Of a DNA stretch of 64,000 nucleotides, positions 10,267 through 63,035 are shown in pieces; position 1 is the stretch's first letter; every line of letters starts with the position of its first letter. Position numbers and translations under genes: made by a program. This DNA is from Eledone cirrhosa (taxonomy: Eukaryota): positions 35,898,001 through 35,962,000 of the forward strand of contig OZ024757.1 of the NCBI GenBank assembly GCA_964016885.1. Direction: 5' to 3'. The notes beneath the pieces were generated by a model, which was not told where the DNA came from, searched no databases, and was given only the letters and a program-made list of their open reading frames with translations.

Positions 10267-10383
10267 TTTTTATGCCTGAAAAATATAAGGACATTCTTAC
10301 AGACATGCAAGAAGGTGTTTGGATTAAAAGATCAGGATTTGTTTGATCCTCCAGATTTGTTTGATGTGAAAGATTTTCGGAAG
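10267..10383 (+). CDS. VAV: Vav-family GEF, exon 2 (CH domain): [39 protein letters not shown]
   Basis: tttcag acceptor, AAG|gtaggt donor, 117 nt, phase 0-0. Translation closely matches the Vav CH segment [11 protein letters not shown]...FDLFDV.DF.K. Confidence 0.95.
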
Positions 10384-13547: not shown

Positions 13548-13603
13548 GTTTTGTATACATTGTCGAAACTTTCTAAAACAGAACTTGCTCAAAAGACTGC
13601 CAG
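13548..13603 (+). CDS. VAV: Vav exon 3 (end of CH domain): VLYTLSKLSKTELAQKTA+AG
   Basis: Polypyrimidine tract + ctcag acceptor, AG|gtaaga donor, 56 nt, phase 0-2. In frame with exon 2; resembles Vav VIYTLSALS..IAQ. Confidence 0.92.
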
Positions 13604-28165: not shown

Positions 28166-28240
28166 AGGGTTCTCTCCCCCTGATACGAGATCTCTCCCTG
28201 TTGAACATGACTATTACAACACATTGGAAGATCTTGCAAC
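28166..28240 (+). CDS. VAV: Vav exon 4a (acidic region, Y142-equivalent): (R)GFSPPDTRSLPVEHDYYNTLEDLA(T)
   Basis: ttttctcaattgtag acceptor, AC|gtaagt donor, 75 nt, phase 2-2, no stops. F-x-P...D-Y-x-x-L pattern of the first Ac exon. Confidence 0.8.
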
Positions 28241-35517: not shown

Positions 35518-35595
35518 CGAGTTTCCACCGTTTGTAGAAACACAGGAATGTGGTGATGATGAAGACATCTACAGCAACCTTAAAGAGATGGCTTT
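35518..35595 (+). CDS. VAV: Vav exon 4b (paralogous acidic-region exon): EFPPFVETQECGDDEDIYSNLKEMA(F)
   Basis: ccttcatttgcttgtag acceptor, TT|gtaagt donor, 78 nt, phase 2-2. GDDEDIYSNL closely resembles VAV1 GDEDIY142SGL. Confidence 0.88.
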
Positions 35596-36259: not shown

Positions 36260-36580
36260 CAATGATATTAATAAATGGAAACTATATTTATAAAACCATA
36301 TTTATTCTATTATATATATTTCAAGGGTACCAAAACTTTGGTACGCTCTCATCAGATAAAATATAAAGTTTGTTTTATAAATATTGACATATCCAGGAAT
36401 GAGATCTTAATGGCTCAAGTTTTTCCTGGATATGAACCGTTAAGATCTCCTTCCTGGATATGTCAATATTTATAAAACAAACTTTGTATTTTATCTGATG
36501 AGAGCGTACCAAAGTTTTGGTACCCTTGAAATATATATAATAGAATAAATATAGTTTCCATTTATTAATATCATTGATAT
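36256..36580. mobile_element. Near-perfect palindromic element (arms about 150 bp) with a hammerhead motif in each arm
   Basis: Arms are reverse complements apart from a few mismatches and one indel of about 14 nt; inserted in (TA)n. Confidence 0.85.
36487..36547 (+). ncRNA. Minimal type-I hammerhead ribozyme, sense to Vav (mirror copy on the minus strand at 36303-36363)
   Basis: TATTTTAT-CTGATGA-GAGCGTACCAA..TTGGTACCCTT-GAAA-tatata-TA-ATAGAATA: 8-bp stem I, 10 of 11 pairs in stem II, palindromic stem III, AUA cleavage triplet. Confidence 0.75.
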
Positions 36581-37135: not shown

Positions 37136-37176
37136 AACAGTGTTTTGTAGCTTGCTTGAAGCATTTTTGTACAGGG

Positions 37177-37543
37177 AACACAAATTTAAATAATTTTGAA
37201 AATCAAGCAATGCATTAGAGAGAAAATTAAATTGCGAAGATAACAAATGAATCTTACCTTAGCAAATTTAATGATCCCAAATATTTTTAGGTTTAAAAAC
37301 CCATTATCAAGGGAATATTCCTAGGTGAGACTTGAAGGATCATTCAAAGTTGGCTTGTTTGGAAAGCAGTTCCGAATGATCCCTTAAGTCTCTTTCAGGG
37401 TTACTCCCTTGATAATGGGTTTTTAAACCCGAAAATATTCGGGATCATTAAATTTGCTAAGGTAAGTTTCTTTTGTTATCTTAGCAATTTAATTTTCTTT
37501 CTAATGCATTGTTTGGTTTTCAAAATGATTTAAATTTGTGTTT
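37177..37543. mobile_element. Palindromic element (arms about 170 bp); one arm recurs at about 50305-50470 beside a Penelope RT remnant
   Basis: cttaccttagcaaatttaatgatccc...aaaaacccattatcaaggga and its reverse complement. Confidence 0.85.
37405..37444 (+). ncRNA. Hammerhead motif with U3-A8 variant core
   Basis: TCCC-TTGATAA-t-GGGTTT(tt)AAACCC-GAAA-atat-TC-GGGA. Confidence 0.6.
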
Positions 37544-37932
37544 CATATATATATATATATATATCTTTATATATTTTGTCTTTTTATTATATATTTATGT
37601 CTGTGTTAATATATGTATATATATATTTTCATCTGTGTTTATATATATATATATTCATATAATCATGTCTATATACATATATGTATATATTTATGAGAAA
37701 GTCAGAAGCTTCATTAAAGAAATGCACATTATTGTGCTTATGTCCAGTTTTTTTCCATTAAGGGGCTTATATGCCCTATTTAAATATATGCCCCTATTTA
37801 AATATGTGCCCTATTTATTTAGATATATGCCCTATCATTTAGACTATTTTTCTAAAGACCAAAAATTTGATGAAGCTTCATTCTCATAAATTTAAAATTC
37901 CACTTATCATTTCTAAATACATGTTTGTTTAT

Positions 37933-45921: not shown

Positions 45922-46024
45922 TGATTTACCAGACGATCATGAAGTCTACAACAAAGAGACACAGGATGATAATCAACAGATATATGAGGATTTGTGCTCA
46001 CTTAAACGTAAATCCACGTCACAG
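45922..46024 (+). CDS. VAV: Vav exon 5a (Y160/Y174-equivalents): DLPDDHEVYNKETQDDNQQIYEDLCSLKRKSTSQ
   Basis: gactttttccag acceptor, CAG|gtaacg donor, 103 nt, phase 2-0. Contains IYEDL, the Vav Y174 autoinhibitory motif. Confidence 0.88.
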
Positions 46025-46409
46025 GTAACGACTGAAGATAATTGTTGTCACACTTAGTCCTCTCGCTCATTTCTTTCTTTGGGGTGTTTTTTTTTTTGGC
46101 ACTTTTTTGTTATTTTTGGGGGAAGCATGTTTATATTATTATTATTGTTGTTGTTTTTGCTATTATTATTATTATTATTACTATTGTTGTTGTTGTTTAT
46201 TAACCTGTTTTTCCTTCAGTTTACTTGTTTTATCTAAATCCTCACTGTCCTTGTATATTTCTGTTTCACCCCTCGTGACCAATAAAGAAATAATAATAAT
46301 ATCATTATTTCAGTTGATTTTCTTTTTTCTTTTCATTTCTTTTATACAATGTTTCATTATATTTCTTGCCTTCCATATATGTGTGTGTGTGGCTATGTCT
46401 ATCTATCTA

Positions 46410-46457
<48 letters not shown>

Positions 46458-47496
46458 CACATACATGCACCCAAATGACTCTATACATACACACATGCAC
46501 ACACACATACATACACACATGCAAACACACAGATATATACTTACAGTAAACATGTTGACTAATCAGGGTTACTTATGCAACACACCAATCAGTGAACAAT
46601 GATGCAATTCCTTATTATATATATATATATACACATACACACATATATACACACTTTTATACATCCCTTTTCTTATTCAATTTCATTTTCTTTTGTTATT
46701 AACATTATTTTTTATTTTAAATCTTAGAAAGAATTTTTTCTTATCATTTCTTTCTTATCTTGGAAGAAAATTTTTCTAATAATTTTTCAATTTTTATTTT
46801 CCTAATAATATTTCAATTTTTATTTTCCTTCAAAGAAACAAACCCCAAACCTGAAAACTGTCAAAATATCTCATTAATTTTATCTAAATTGAATTATATA
46901 TTTTTCTTGTGTGTGTTTTACTTAATTTTGCAACATTTAAAAATAAAAAAAGAATAAATATCTTTTTTCTTTTTAAATGTTTAATTGAAATTCAACTTGT
47001 TACTGGGAGAAAATATTTGTGTTGTTTGAAACAGTTTCAAATTTGTGTGATACTTGTTACTGTTCATATAGGACTTGTGTGATACTTGTTACTGTTCATA
47101 TAGGACTTTCACACAGAATATTGTTTCTACATAAATGTTGAAATAATTATAAACAGGATAATAATGAATGTGGATAGTTTAACAGGATAATTTGGTAGAG
47201 TTAACAATGAATATAGATCAGTTAGCAGTGAACGGTGAAGGGTTAACAGTGAACGGTGAAGGGTTAACAGTGAACAGTGAAGGGTTAACAGTGAATGTGG
47301 AAGGGTTAACAGTTGAATTTACCCTTCTCCCACTCCCCACCATCAGAATCATGTCATTATCACAGAAAGTAAACTAGATAATACTACCACTACCACCACC
47401 ACCACCACCACTACTACTACTACTACTAACACTACTACCACCACTACTACTACCACTAATACCACCACTGCCACCACTACTACTACTACTACCACC

Positions 47497-47531
<35 letters not shown>

Positions 47532-47754
47532 CACTAATACCACCACCACCACTACTGCTACCACCACTACCAGTACCGCCACTACTAATACCACCACCAC
47601 CACCACTACTAATACCACCACCATCACCACTACTACCACCACTACTACCACCACCACCACAGAACAGAAACTTAAGATGGTGGACTAATGGTAAAAACTG
47701 GCTAATTATATAGGACAACATTTGAGAAAGATATCACCCTTCCACTACCTCATG

Positions 47755-48030
47755 AGGGGAGGTGGCCAAGTGGTAAGGGTGTTGGATTACAATCATATTG
47801 TTGTGGGTTAGATACCTGGACTGGGTTGTATGTTGTGTTCTTGAGAAAAACACTTTCACATTGCTCCAGTATACTCAACTGAAAATGTGAGTTCCAGCAA
47901 TAATTGGGAGTTTAACCTTGCTATGGACTGGTGTCCTGTCCAGGAAGGAGTCTTTTACCCTCAGCCACTTCATGCCCTGAAAACAGGGATAAGCACTGGC
48001 CTCTGGGTTTCAAATAAACTTCAGACTTTT
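47755..48030 (+). mobile_element. Older tRNA/CORE-like SINE; related copy at about 32100-32420
   Basis: A/B boxes and ttcttgag..acactttcacattgctccagtatactca domain, with a different tail from family B. Confidence 0.6.
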
Positions 48031-48049
48031 TTAAGATAGTACCTTCATC

Positions 48050-49390
48050 TGTTAGACCAAGGGTGGCCCACATCTAGGGTGGCCTACATCTGTTAGACAT
48101 AAGGTGGCCCACATCTGTTAGACCAAGGGTGGCCTACACCTGTTAGACATAAGGTGGCCCACATCTGTTAGACATAAGGTGGCCCACATCTGTTAGACAT
48201 AAGGTGGCCCACATCTGTTAGACCAAGGGTGGCCTACACCTGTTAGACCAAGTGTGGCCTACACCTATTAGACCAAGGGTGGCCCACAACTGTTAGACCA
48301 AGGGTGGCCTACACCTGTTAGACATAAGGTGGCCCACATCTGTTAGACCAAGGGTGGTCTACACCTGTTAGACCAAGGGTGGCCTACATCTGTTAGACCA
48401 AGGGTGGCCTACATCTGTTAGACCAAGGGTAGCCTACACCTGTTAGTCTAAGGGTGGCCCACATCTGTTAGACCAAGGGTAACCTACACCTGTTAGACAT
48501 AAGCTGGCCCACATCTGTTAGACCAAGGGTGGCCTACACCTGTTAGACCAAGGGTGGCCTACATCTGTTAGACCAAGGGTAGCCTACACCTGTTAGTCCA
48601 AAGGTGGCCCACATCTGTTAGACCAAGGGTGGCCTACACCTGTTAGACCAAGGGTGGCCTACACCTGTTAGACCAAGGGTGGCCTACACCTGTTAGACCA
48701 AGGGTGGCCTACACCTGTTAGACCAAGTGTGGCCTACACCTGTTAGACCAAGGGTGGCCTACATCTGTTAAACCAAGGGTGGCCTACATCTGTTAAACCA
48801 AGGGTAGCCTACACCTGTTAGACCAAGGGTGGCCGACATCTGTTAGACCAAGTGTGGCCTACATCTGTTAGACCAAGGGTGGCCTACACCTGTTAGACCA
48901 AGGGTAGCCTACACCTGTTAGTCTAAGGGTGGCCCACATCTGTTAGACCAAGGGTGGCCTACACCTGTTAGTCTAAGGGTGGCCCACATCTGTTAGACCA
49001 AGGGTAACCTACACCTGTTAGACATAAGCTGGCCCACATCTGTTAGACCAAGGGTGGCCTACATCTGTTAGACCAAGGGTGGCCTACACCTGTTAGACCA
49101 AGGGTGGTCTACACCTGTTAGACCAAGTGTGGCCTACATCTGTTAGACCAAGGGTGGCCTACACCTGTTAGACCAAGGGTCGCCTACACCTGTTAGACCA
49201 AGGGTGGCCTACACTTGTTAGACCAAGGGTGGCCTACACCTGTTAGACCAAGGGTGGCCTACACCTGTTAGACCAAGGGTGGCCCACATCTGTTAGACCA
49301 AGGGTGGCCCACATCTGTTAGACCAAGGGTGGCCTACACCTGTTAGACCAAGGGTGGTCTACATCTGTTAGACCAAGGGTGGCCTACATC
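48050..49390. repeat. 25-bp minisatellite tgttagaccaagggtggcctacacc, about 54 copies
   Basis: Head-to-tail units with variant positions and no unique spacers. Confidence 0.97.
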
Positions 49391-49666
49391 TAGTGTTTAT
49401 AGCAGTAGTAGTAGTAACAATGGTAGTGGTAGTAATAGTAGTAGTAGTAAACCCGGATAAACCTACACCCAGATATGCCTCCCTAAACAATAACTCTCTA
49501 CTTGAGTGGGCCATGGTGTCCAAATCCTGATTTGAAAGACTTCGCCAGGTGGTGCTATTAAGTTAGACATGGCCTTGGCCATTACTGGCCGAAACCTATC
49601 AAAGTTTTATATATATATATGTATGACTTTTGTCAAATCGGACCAAGGAAACAATGTTTCCGTTGG

Positions 49667-49881
49667 TCTTTCCAATTGTTAATACTATCTATCGGTCGCA
49701 ACTCCAGGTAGAAGGAGCAATGTGAAATAAAGTGTCTTGTTCAAGGACATAACGCATCGCCCAGTCCAGGAATCAAACTGACAACCTCACGATTGCGAAT
49801 CCAGTTCTCTAACTAATCAGCCACACGCCTTCACTTCTACCTGGAGTTGCGACCGATAGATAGTATTAACAATTGGAAAGA
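49667..49881. mobile_element. Perfect 48-bp inverted repeats enclosing a minus-strand tRNA-SINE head
   Basis: 49667-49714 is the exact reverse complement of 49834-49881; the interior resembles a SINE-B-like head. Confidence 0.8.
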
Positions 49882-49939
49882 TATATATATGTGTATATTC
49901 AAATGTGAATATATAATATATACATATATATATACATAT

Positions 49940-50303
49940 ATATGAAATACTGAATGAACAGTACAAAAGTATGTTCACACCCCTACTGAGGCACATGCAA
50001 ATAACAAAGCCAGGTGATTTCTTTGATGGCACAACACTCCATGAAGAAATGGTGACCATCAACCACATAGACATAATGGAGGAAGATGTGATATCCGCCA
50101 TAAACGAAATTAGAACAAACTCAGCTGTTGGACCTGACGGATTCCCAGCAGTCCTCCTAAAAACATGTAAACATGCCTTAGCAGGACCACTGAAGATCCT
50201 CTCCAGAAGCTCTTTGGCTAGCGGTAAACTACCCAGAGAGCTAAAAGAAGGCACAATATGCCTTATCCATAAAGGAGGAAGCAGAGCGGAGGCCAAAAAC
50301 TAC
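49940..50303 (+). mobile_element. CR1/Jockey-group LINE RT N-terminal fragment
   Basis: SAVGPDGFPAVLLK.C...LAGPL.....IHKGGSRAEAKNY. Confidence 0.75.
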
Positions 50304-50949
50304 AATATAAATTTAAATATATTTGAAAACCATACAATGCATTAGAAAATTAAAAGTGCCAAGATAACAAAAGAATCTTACCTTAGCAAATTTAATAATC
50401 TCAAATATTTTTGGGTTTAAAAACCCATTATCAAGGAAGTAACCCTGTGAGAGACTTAAGGATTGATCGAAGATGAATTGTTGTTAGGAAGGCAGATTTA
50501 AGATAAATGTAATGAAAAGACATTAAAATTTCGAGCGTGCATGTTGTGAAATGTCTGGGAAAAAGTGTTTGATATATGCATGTGTGTGCTTAGTGGGATG
50601 TTTGTATGTGTGTGCATGAATGTAAGTTTATGTAGTGAAAGGTGTGTGCGAATATGTATATAATAAAATAGGAAAAATATGTATGCATGTCTGCGAGTCT
50701 AAGTGTGTTTGCCTAGTGAGGACAGATTTAATTTGAAAGAAAGAATGAAACTGGCCACTGGGATGTTGGAATACAGGCTTTTAAATTAGCCATTCTGGTG
50801 CACTTCTTTCCATTCGATTATTGATCCTAGGTTTTAATTGCTTGATTAAGAGGGCGGAAGGAAGAGGAGTTGGTGTTAACATGCTCTTTAATTTGGAGAT
50901 GTAACGGTTGAAGAGTGCTGCCTATGTAAAATAGGTTAGAGTAGATTGC

Positions 50950-51570
50950 ACTTGTTACATTCTAACCTGTATACTACACCATTTCTAGCATCCTACAAAA
51001 ACACACACATACTCACCACAACCTCTCCAGATCACAACTCATCGGACAAGGGAAAAGAGTTTTGTGTTATTACCAACCTAGCCCACCAATATCTCAACGA
51101 CAACTGTCTCTGCTTGGAAGTGACCTGAATTACACCCGCACTGATAGAGAACTGGATCAACACTGCCTGGACCAACATCTGTGACCAATGAAGGCTCCCG
51201 AAGAGATTCCAATACAATTACATAAGAAACAGCAGGCAGCCCAACTTCTACCACCTGATCCAACAAAGAAGTTCCTGGCCTTAAAATTAGATACATTTTC
51301 TCTAGTATTGAAGGACCATCTTATGAAATCTCTTGGCTTCTGTCCAAGATTTTAAAGCCCCTGTTGTATCGGCATCACCACCACCGACATCCACCAGCTC
51401 CTATCCATCGTTGTCAACAATGCCTTTTTCAACTTGCTGGGACAAACCTACCGACAGACCTCTGGACTACCCATCGGGTTTATTGGTCATTTCGTATATG
51501 ACCAGGCTAGAATGCCGAGTACTCAGCTCCTGCGACACCTGCACTTTCTTCACTAGATATGTTTGCCAAA
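50950..51570 (+). mobile_element. Degenerate Penelope-like RT remnant
   Basis: Frameshifted SDKGKEFCVI, PNFYHLI and KIR.I.SSIEGPSYEISWL segments resemble the PLE RT N-terminus. Confidence 0.55.
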
Positions 51571-53758
51571 TATCAATTATTAAACAAAAAGGATGAACTT
51601 GTTACCTGGTGTAAGCACAGGATATATAAGACATATCTCACCTTCAAACCCCCTCACGATCCAGGTGGGTAGATATTGGTTTTCAATATCCATCCCACTT
51701 ACACACTAAGATTGAGGCACCCCAGAGCACACTAGTCCCTTTCCTAAAGCATCCCTAGGTAGACATAGAATATTTACATTACTGTAAACATATACATATT
51801 GCCCCTAATAGGACCAGCTGATTAGATGGCACAGATCCATTACTCACAGTTTAAGCACAAGTCACAAGTATAAACACCACCATTAGTGTACTGCAGTAAT
51901 GGCATGCTTGGTATATAGAGTAAATGTGTACTATTATACACAAACACATTAGGCCCGTACTTAAGCACCATCATAAAAACTATAGCATTAGAAATGTTAA
52001 AGAAAGCTACAAGTTAGCATTCAATTCTTATACTTTCTATTGTTAAGGTATTGCGATGGCTTTGATATACCTGTTATATATACACATTGAGGCATTTCTT
52101 ATATAAAACAGGAATCCATAATACTATAGATTGTTAGCTAACTTACGATAGCACGAGAACTGAAATAACTAGAACTATCTTTAAGATTAATGCTAGATTA
52201 TTGGTGTTTGAAATAAGTAAATTAATGAATGAGGAGTTTTTCCCGGGCCATAGAGCAATTAATAACTAGAAATCTCTATGAGGAGGGGAAATAGTAATAA
52301 ATTATAAATTCTTAGCTATTTAGCAAATCATAAATAAAGGCAAATTAACAAACACACTTTGATTTAAATACACCGAAATTAAAATTTCTCTGTTTTTTTC
52401 TTTTTGAACCTAATGTAGCTAAGTACAATGTCATTTTTACAGATTAGAAATGTTTGATAATGTAGAATTCTCTCTCAAATGTGTGTGTGCTCTACTAGCA
52501 AGCTTAACATCTTCAGATCAATAGGTCTAGTCACCCACTTTCTCCTAGCTTTTTGTCTAACCCCTTATCCCCTATGCATTGCAGCCATCTGTGTAATAAA
52601 ACTAGATAATTCAAGACATCGGGATAAAGCAGGACTAAACTAGCTATCTTTACGGAGTCGTACATTTGAACAAAGGTACCCTCCCTCCCGATCACTGACC
52701 ACTCCGGAAGAAAAACAAAAAAAAAAGAGAACTTTAAAGATTATTTTTGCATAGACTGTCTGCCCATATATGGACAATACCCCTTGAAGACTTCAGCTAG
52801 ATTCCCACCACTTCACTATTGGCGCTTTAGTTCAGATCTATCTGTTGAAATGGCCGGAGCTCAGCCGTCGGGGTCCTGAGTCTTTTCGCATATATATATT
52901 ATCATCATTGTTTTACGTCCATTCTTCCATGCTAGCATGGGTTAGACGGGTTGTCCTGTTGTGGACAATGCCAGGTCGAGTGACCATGTTTTGCTCATAT
53001 TGTTTAACGTCCATCTTCCACGCTAGCATATATATGTACATATATATACATATATGTATTTATATGTATTTATATACATATATGTGCATATATATATATA
53101 CATATATGTACCTACATGTATTTATATACATATATGTATATATATACATATATGTACCTATATGTATTTATATCCATATATGTACCTATATATACATATA
53201 TGTGCATATATGTATATATATACATATATGTACCTACATGTATTTATATACATATATGTATATATATACATATATGTACCTATATGTATTTATATACATA
53301 TATGTATATAAATACATATATGTATATATATACATATAGGTAAATATATGTATTTATATGCACACACACATGCGCCCCAACCCTGTCCTCACACCTCACC
53401 ACCAGCCACATATCTGATTTTACTCCACTCCACCCTGTATTTAAATTATAATTTTTAATTTCTTAAACTTTATTTTCAGTAAATTTCATCGTTGTTTTTT
53501 TTTAATTTAAATTTAATTTTTTTTTTTTTCCCCATTTGTTGTTTTTTGTTTTGTTGTATTATTGTTGTCTTATTTTTATTTCATTTAAAAAAAAATTAAT
53601 TCCTAATTTTTAATTTTGTTGTTGCTGCTGCTGCTGTAATTGTTTATTTTTGGTTGTTGTTGTTATTGTTGTAATCCATCCATATAAATAAGCTTTGTTA
53701 TTGTAGTTGTTGTAGTAGTAGTAGTTGTTGTAGTAGTTGTTGTTGTTGTTACATCTAG

Positions 53759-53867
53759 TGAAAATGACTTGGATGATAACCAGGACTTGTACGATGTTGT
53801 GTACGATGGTGAGGAAGACGAACAAATTTATGAACATTTGTGTAGCAGAAATCAGAGATTCTCCACA
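53759..53867 (+). CDS. VAV: Vav exon 5b (paralogous to 5a): ENDLDDNQDLYDVVYDGEEDEQIYEHLCSRNQRFST
   Basis: acatctag acceptor, ACA|gtaagt donor, 109 nt, phase 2-0. DLYD (Y160-like) and IYEHL (Y174-like) motifs. Confidence 0.86.
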
Positions 53868-60795: not shown

Positions 60796-60995
60796 CAAAT
60801 TACTTCAAAATAGTTGAAATAATTGTTTTTTTTTTGTTTTTTTTTTATCTTTTTCTTTTAGTTTGATGTTGATGACAATGATGATGATGATGATAAATTG
60901 CCTGTAAAACCGTAAAATTGGTGTTTTTTGAAATTGTGTTGTAGCTATTATATGCTGGTTAATCTGTCTTATAGCTTCTTTCTGCTTACTTACAG

Positions 60996-61094
60996 ACAGG
61001 AATGCCACCACCAACTACCAAACGTGACCACTGCCTCAAAGAGTTGGTTGACACAGAGAAAAATTATGTTGAAGCCCTAGTAATGATTGTGAAT
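60996..61094 (+). CDS. VAV: Vav exon 6 (start of DH domain): TGMPPPTTKRDHCLKELVDTEKNYVEALVMIVN
   Basis: cttacttacag acceptor, AAT|gtaagt donor, 99 nt, phase 0-0. KR..CL.E...TE..Y is DH conserved region 1. Confidence 0.93.
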
Positions 61095-62966: not shown

Positions 62967-63035
62967 CATTTTAGTAAACCTCTCCGAACTGTCTTACAAC
63001 CACAAGACCGAGAAATCATATTCAAGCACATAGAA
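62967..63035 (+). CDS. VAV: Vav exon 7 (DH): HFSKPLRTVLQPQDREIIFKHIE
   Basis: tttcag acceptor, GAA|gtatgt donor, 69 nt, phase 0-0. Resembles VAV1 HFLKPL...L.PQD.EIIF.NIE. Confidence 0.93.

Follow-up and report, generated by a model that had tools for sequence, protein, structure and literature searches.

Two alternative exons for the Y174 autoinhibitory helix in a single vav gene of the octopod Eledone cirrhosa

The vav locus and its two versions of exon 5

The window analysed here is a stretch of 64,000 nucleotides (nt) from the genome of Eledone cirrhosa (assembly GCA_964016885.1, contig OZ024757.1, positions 35,898,001–35,962,000, + strand), and it holds exons of a gene that, judged from its sequence, encodes a Rho guanine nucleotide exchange factor (GEF) of the Vav family. 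In Vav proteins (PMC4601183, PMC10177506), the CH domain together with Y142 and Y160 contacts the DH and PH domains, the helix around Y174 obstructs the GTPase site, and Y142, Y160 and Y174 are phosphorylated in sequence. The subject of this study is exon 5, which encodes the Y160/Y174 segment and is present in the window twice, as 5a and 5b.

Exon 5a (45922–46024, + strand) is 103 nt long and encodes a less acidic, derived form of the Y174 helix segment with one upstream tyrosine, and exon 5b (53759–53867, + strand) is 109 nt long and encodes an ancestral-type form in which a Y160-like YDxVY motif precedes the Y174 helix. Both are phase 2-0, and 7734 nt of intron sequence (46025–53758, + strand) lie between them. 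The exon borders are CCAG/TGATTT...TCACAG/GTAACG for 5a and CTAG/TGAAAA...TCCACA/GTAAGT for 5b, i.e., both begin after an AG acceptor and end at a GT donor, and each is open in a single frame. An initial annotation of the window, made from the sequence alone, had given these coordinates, phases and splice sites exactly, and had called the two exons homologous. Their peptides share 14 identities with a global alignment score of 57, compared with 16.7 ± 6.9 for shuffled sequences, none of which scored as high in 5000 trials.

The two lengths both leave a remainder of one when divided by three. We spliced the gene in silico in 32 combinations: four choices at exon 4, four at exon 5 and two acceptors at exon 6. 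Exactly the 16 combinations with one exon 5 are open. When 5a is joined to 5b, all eight combinations stop at a TGA that starts at nt 1 of 5b, and when both are skipped, all eight run into a TAG in exon 6, at nt 83 or, if the longer acceptor is used, at nt 104. Both stops had been predicted in the initial annotation. A scan of all six frames of the window with profiles built from relatives found exactly two copies each of exon 5 and exon 4 that pass the inclusion threshold, and no third copy of either.

Both exons lie in one vav locus, the only one detected. We searched the 3.0-Gb genome with a full-length relative as query, and 21 of the 25 matches, including every match above 44 bits, are colinear on the + strand of the window's contig (C18) over approximately 170 kb. 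The other four are weak (at most 30 bits) and fall in the SH3 and DH regions. No second vav locus was found in this search, a stricter first look that may miss weak matches. The colinear exon matches, together with the Pfam list of the closest relatives, fit a CH-Ac-DH-PH-C1-SH3-SH2-SH3 architecture, and the best solved-structure matches are Vav1 and Vav3. Exon 5b alone gave no solved-structure match and no meaningful Pfam family.

It had been allowed from the start that one exon could be a dead pseudo-exon, or that the two could come from misassembled paralogues. The stringency of the genome search leaves some room for this, but both exons show conservation, relatives' proteins carry each of them between identical flanks, and all the strong vav matches sit colinearly on one strand of one contig. 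We regard this explanation as largely refuted and very improbable.

Use of both exons in relatives

We compared the window with 19 octopod-type protein records, namely 15 of the 29 members of one cluster, all three members of another (one of them from Argonauta hians), and P0019. Nine carry 5a, nine carry 5b, none carries both, and one begins in exon 6. Exons 4a, 4b and 4a+4b are each seen with 5a and with 5b, so all six combinations are found. Compared with an octopod relative, the window's 5a is identical at 34/34 residues and 5b at 34/36, and the corresponding values are 21/24 for 4a, 22/25 for 4b and 20/23 for exon 7. Against decapodiform records, 5a and 5b each have 29 identities.

Three decapodiform Logan contigs of 2.9–3.1 kb encode 866–876 residues, a ratio from which we infer that they are spliced; one holds 4a+5a and two hold 4b+5b. 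Two of them, P0020 (4a+5a; 2916 nt, 866 residues) and P0142 (4b+5b; 3142 nt, 869 residues), are identical at 370/370 positions from the start of the DH domain. More widely, 118 of 119 mollusc and brachiopod proteins contain exactly one Y174 helix and none contains two. By type, the 118 comprise 17 of type a, 99 of type b, and two from Lingula that were left unclassified.

Two points weigh against reading too much into these counts. The isoform records are automated gene models, and the absence of proteins with both helices follows from the stop codon itself and says nothing about whether the splicing step is exclusive. With these points in mind, the frame logic, the relatives' isoform records, the intronless contigs and the conservation of both exons together support what had first been proposed, that one vav gene uses its two Y174-helix exons in a mutually exclusive way.

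Age and spread of the exon pair

Pairs of 5a and 5b within one gene also occur in bivalves, where they are known from protein isoform records. The Pacific oyster has them in two record sets (identical elsewhere at 365/365 and 370/370 residues) and the Yesso scallop in one (370/370), and 5a-type exons are further present in Mytilus edulis, Ylistrum and Ruditapes. Database isoform pairs that hold both exon types include oyster X3/X5, scallop X7/X4, and, among arthropods, Argiope X1/X2 and Rhodnius X1/X2.

In a tree of 23 rows, some of which include one residue of exon 6, all six 5a exons and the Lingula exon are separated from all 5b, gastropod, chiton and Owenia exons with support of 97/96, and a duplication confined to cephalopods is rejected by the approximately unbiased (AU) test (p-AU 0.031). 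A tree of 52 rows under LG+G4 again groups 5a (87/74) and 5b (95/91). Cephalopod and bivalve 5a exons also share a shorter length, a PD or PE start and a CS(L/V/I)(K/N) motif.

Several observations pull the other way. Under LG+C20, the 52-row tree does not recover 5a as one group, and a cephalopod-only duplication is not rejected (p 0.18). The window's 5a scores up to 95.5 against several bivalve 5b exons, compared with 60.5–82 against bivalve 5a. The terminal Q common to 5a exons may reflect only the CAG/GT donor preference. Finally, a 5a-type exon is absent from 34 gastropod and four chiton isoform records.

Separate duplications in cephalopods and bivalves, with the two kinds of 5a drawn together only by fast evolution, would account for the pairwise scores and the LG+C20 result. 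We judge this rather unlikely given the 23-row test, the LG+G4 groups and the shared 5a traits. It is most likely, on these alignments, that the duplication predates the cephalopod–bivalve split.

A single exon-5 type was found in the isoform sets of many other animals, possibly through annotation gaps: Littorina (8 isoforms), Haliotis (14), Gigantopelta (8), Babylonia (4), Liolophura (4), Lingula (6), Lineus (9), Priapulus (2), Asterias (7, excluding a 38-residue fragment), Ptychodera (13), Branchiostoma (11) and Nematostella (2). Lingula's only annotated exon 5 (P0050) groups with mollusc 5a and not with 5b, and its 5b copy may be unannotated or lost. Owenia has two exon-5 types, one of them from a partial record (P0184), with 351/351 identical residues downstream. 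This form and another short one, from Tubulanus (X5, P0185), begin with a different tyrosine-helix segment joined directly to exon 6, as would be expected if the annelid and the nemertean had either an additional exon 5 or an alternative first exon.

In arthropods, two forms that differ only in the Y174 segment occur in Pycnogonum, Tachypleus, Argiope, Larinioides, Dermacentor albipictus and Rhodnius, and in four joined gene models (P0201, P0207, P0225, P0306) the exon of one type, recognisable by CYVT, lies upstream. Topology tests under LG+G4 gave similar results for grouping 5a with arthropod type A (p-AU 0.50) and arthropod A with arthropod B (0.51), and a p-AU of 0.24 for grouping 5a with arthropod B. 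Mean similarity is 0.15 between 5a and arthropod A, compared with 0.32 between 5a and 5b. As far as such comparisons go, the exon pair is older and more widespread than cephalopods: bivalves have it, and arthropods have an equivalent pair, of either shared or separate origin.

Some spider and tick proteins (P0286, P0287, P0289, P0290, P0307, P0310, P0316, P0318) use alternative first exons just before exon 4 and lack the CH domain; exon 5 in them can be of either type. Among mites, several proteins begin close to the CYVT-type helix. A Vav without its CH domain would be partly deregulated.

Charge, tyrosines and the derived copy

The two copies differ in acidic charge and in the tyrosines that precede Y174. 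The window's 5b has a net charge of −11 and tyrosines at −13 and −9 from Y174, whereas its 5a has a net charge of −6 and one upstream tyrosine, at −12, outside a YDxV context. The same division holds across molluscs. All nine 5b exons have two tyrosines, at −12/−8 or −13/−9, with a net charge of −11 to −12, and all six 5a exons have one upstream tyrosine or none, with a net charge of −5 to −7; in three of the four bivalves, 5a has no upstream tyrosine at all. Zebrafish Vav3 and two hemichordates have the pattern of mollusc 5b.

The initial annotation had counted a tyrosine in 5b as an extra one. This does not hold: zebrafish Vav3, hemichordates and most molluscs have the YDxVY tyrosines as well, so 5b is the ancestral, Vav3-like form. 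By the same comparison 5a is derived, its acidic charge halved and its Y160 site eroded. Arthropods resemble molluscs in this respect, since their upstream type has no upstream tyrosine in eight of nine cases and their downstream type has at least one in nine of nine. From these alignments, tyrosines and charge have disappeared from one of the two copies in both molluscs and arthropods, and that copy is the upstream one both in the window and in the joined arthropod models.

A consistent direction of change also bears on whether the choice of exon matters. The exons could be truly exclusive and yet nearly equivalent in function, each kept as the default in some tissue. Both retain the IYE-x-LC core and dock alike in predicted models, only 5b is found in gastropod and chiton records, and bivalve 5a exons are very divergent among themselves, with 12–15 identities to the window's 5a, all of which fit near-equivalence. 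We nevertheless find it unlikely, given that 6/6 mollusc 5a exons and 8/9 arthropod upstream-type exons are less acidic and poorer in tyrosines, and that the window's 5a is fully identical to that of an octopod relative while 4a, 4b, 5b and exon 7 differ.

How one exon may be chosen

Steric interference between the splice sites of 5a and 5b is ruled out because the intron between them is approximately 7.7 kb long. Minor-class splice sites are not present, as the donors (GTAACG for 5a, GTAAGT for 5b) are of the ordinary GT-AG type. Using the window sequence only, we scored RNA pairing for 15 pairs of flanks against 30 shuffles each, and the strongest had a z of −2.3; no pairing beyond chance was found between the introns that flank the exons in the window. 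With neither a steric nor a minor-intron route to exclusion, and with no outstanding flank pairing, regulated choice plus decay is the default reading. Exclusivity would most likely arise from a regulated choice of splice sites, with decay as a second safeguard that removes messages containing both exons or neither.

A looser arrangement would have 5a and 5b as independent cassettes, with both-exon and no-exon messages being made and then removed by nonsense-mediated decay, possibly as a way to regulate the level of Vav. The long intron, the ordinary donors and the lack of convincing flank pairing all suit this, as do the early stops of the wrong products, which lie far upstream of many junctions. 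Set against it, long-range pairing or protein-guided exclusion may still operate. We see independent cassettes as a serious contender, though one with clearly less than an even chance, and at the level of protein they are compatible with the regulated choice that we prefer.

The introns around these exons contain other features. Long hairpin-type inverted repeats lie at 36293–36557 (125 nt at 96%), 37163–37556 (183 nt at 86%) and 53026–53373, the last being a degenerate palindromic array that ends approximately 390 nt upstream of 5b; they are probably small mobile elements or simple repeats. A single GCATG, which we take to be an Rbfox-type core, lies at 46125–46129, 101 nt downstream of 5a. 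With 0.24 expected per 300 nt this is within chance, and none was found near the other five exons scanned. UG-rich tracts above both 5a and 5b are microsatellites and provide a lead only.

Other exons of the window and their variants

The remaining vav exons in the window, all on the + strand, frame the exon 5 pair. Exon 2 (10267–10383) encodes part of the CH domain, is constitutive in full-length forms and is identical to octopod relatives at 39/39 residues, and exon 3 (13548–13603, phase 0-2) completes that domain with 18/18 identities. Between 18150 and 19070, in intron 3, there are open stretches whose translation resembles what is presumably a reverse transcriptase fragment of the long interspersed nuclear element (LINE) type. 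Exon 7 (62967–63035) belongs to the DH domain.

Upstream of exon 5, what the initial annotation had called 4x corresponds to two copies of exon 4: 4a (28166–28240, 75 nt) with a YY motif, and 4b (35518–35595, 78 nt) with a DEDIY motif. Both are phase 2-2, Y142-type and optional, and 4b can be joined to 4a, i.e., exon 4 is duplicated too, with copies that are usable singly or together and are not exclusive. Exon 4 is also doubled in Solemya, oysters, Babylonia, Batillaria, Lottia, Liolophura and Lingula, so this duplication spans molluscs and a brachiopod. Arthropod and priapulid proteins have YYN and IY motifs in one segment, the first of which is found in 4a and the second in 4b in the window; this division may represent a split of function after duplication.

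Exon 6 (60975–61094) encodes a linker and the start of the DH domain, and has two acceptors, at 60975 and 60996, seven codons apart. Depending on which is used, a stretch of seven residues that includes one tyrosine is present or missing where the Y174 helix leads into the DH domain, and both forms occur in octopod records. Scallop records have an optional six-residue insert at the same place.

Autoinhibition and the proposed switch

When aligned to human Vav1 (6nf1), the tyrosine region of 4a falls on Y142, and the DLYDVV and IYEHL of 5b fall on Y160 and Y174, respectively. The DH pocket residues T205, Y209, F320, L325, V328, Q331 and R332, a list given in bioRxiv 10.1101/2021.05.10.443419, are conserved.

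Predicted models of both isoforms of an octopod relative, P0007 and P0018, place a helix at residues 166–181 and 173–188, with a predicted local distance difference test score (pLDDT) of approximately 50–58. Both superpose on Vav1 6new, with root-mean-square deviations of 2.6 Å over 376 residues and 2.7 Å over 378. The superpositions start at 174/172 and 177/172, so Y176 and Y179 fall on Y174 if there is no gap between. With such pLDDT values, input alignments that mixed exon types, and Vav1 structures that are public, the models weigh little in favour of a shared docking mode. With low confidence, then, they suggest that both exon-5 helices sit like the Y174 helix of Vav1.

We propose that 5a and 5b stem from an old tandem duplication of the vav exon that encodes the autoinhibitory Y160/Y174 segment, and that choosing between them likely sets how tight the lock is and which tyrosines the exchange factor uses. 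Exon 5b would keep a multi-site lock like that of Vav1 and Vav3, in which CH-Ac is held on DH-PH by Y160 and acidic residues, with phosphorylation there coming before that of Y174. Exon 5a would keep the core helix and lose part of the outer lock along with some of the priming or SH2 sites, giving a different basal activity and kinase dependence. A looser 5a lock would raise basal activity and fewer priming sites could slow activation, so we do not confidently predict the net direction. With the optional 4a and 4b, the gene could make six acidic regions with three to six tyrosines, by sequence count.

Overall, we consider it probable that 5a and 5b are an old exclusive exon duplicate from before the cephalopod–bivalve split, the choice of which likely tunes the Vav lock. 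A single gene would then likely give rise to two activators of cell-shape GTPases that differ in their tuning.

Wider meaning

More tentatively, and with somewhat less than an even chance of being right, protostomes, with their one vav gene, may have used splicing to recreate the regulatory variety that came to vertebrates with three genes. The swappable Y174 exon would be either ancestral to molluscs and arthropods or twice evolved in the same direction, with an upstream copy that lacks Y160 and acidic charge, and it would toggle tissue-specifically between a multi-tyrosine stepwise lock and a nearly single-tyrosine one. If true, this is a natural experiment on how much Y160 and the acidic residues contribute to autoinhibition.

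The acidic helix of Vav serves as a textbook case of an autoinhibitory switch and is a site of cancer mutations in human VAV1 (PMC10177506), and natural exon pairs on an otherwise identical protein offer a clean test of its outer tyrosines and acidic residues. That the same exon is doubled in molluscs, arthropods and perhaps an annelid means either that a splice switch has been conserved from very early on or that evolution has clearly repeated itself.

The initial annotation knew of no description of such a pair. We found none in the literature, where a fly or insect listing in supplements could have been missed, but both forms are already in automated database annotation, without a description that we could find as a swappable autoinhibitory element. 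According to a 2014 review, Vav splice isoforms exist in every species, with nothing known about their signalling specificity (PMC4601183), and PMC2614494 mentions possible unannotated variants of fly vav without detail. The text of a 2019 review of Vav evolution (PMC6562523) contains neither “splic” nor “exon”, and “vav” does not occur in PMC3923563 or in one of the six supplementary files of PMC7954323.

Comparison with known systems

Vertebrate Vav1, Vav2 and Vav3 (PDB 3ky9, 1f5x, 6new) have the same domain order, the same three tyrosine positions and the same DH pocket as the protein described here, and zebrafish Vav3 has an acidic segment close to 5b. Where vertebrates have three Vav genes (PMC4601183), Eledone has one gene with two Y160/Y174 exons and two Y142 exons.

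Tandem exon duplication with exclusive splicing is a known class that has often arisen recurrently across lineages, as PMC3342872 describes. The homologous exclusive exons of Dscam and tropomyosin are likewise tandem, of the same phase and used one per product. Unlike them, vav exon 5 has only two copies, with no docking-site pairing found in the window, and the swap concerns an autoinhibitory element, gated by phosphorylation, within a signalling enzyme instead of a binding or structural domain.

Splicing near the DH domain also affects Vav in zebrafish, where a 15-nt neural microexon of vav2 raises activity approximately threefold in a reporter assay (PMC12626424). That microexon is a cassette insertion, whereas exon 5 is a helix swap, and the seven-codon alternative acceptor of octopod exon 6 may be its nearer analogue.

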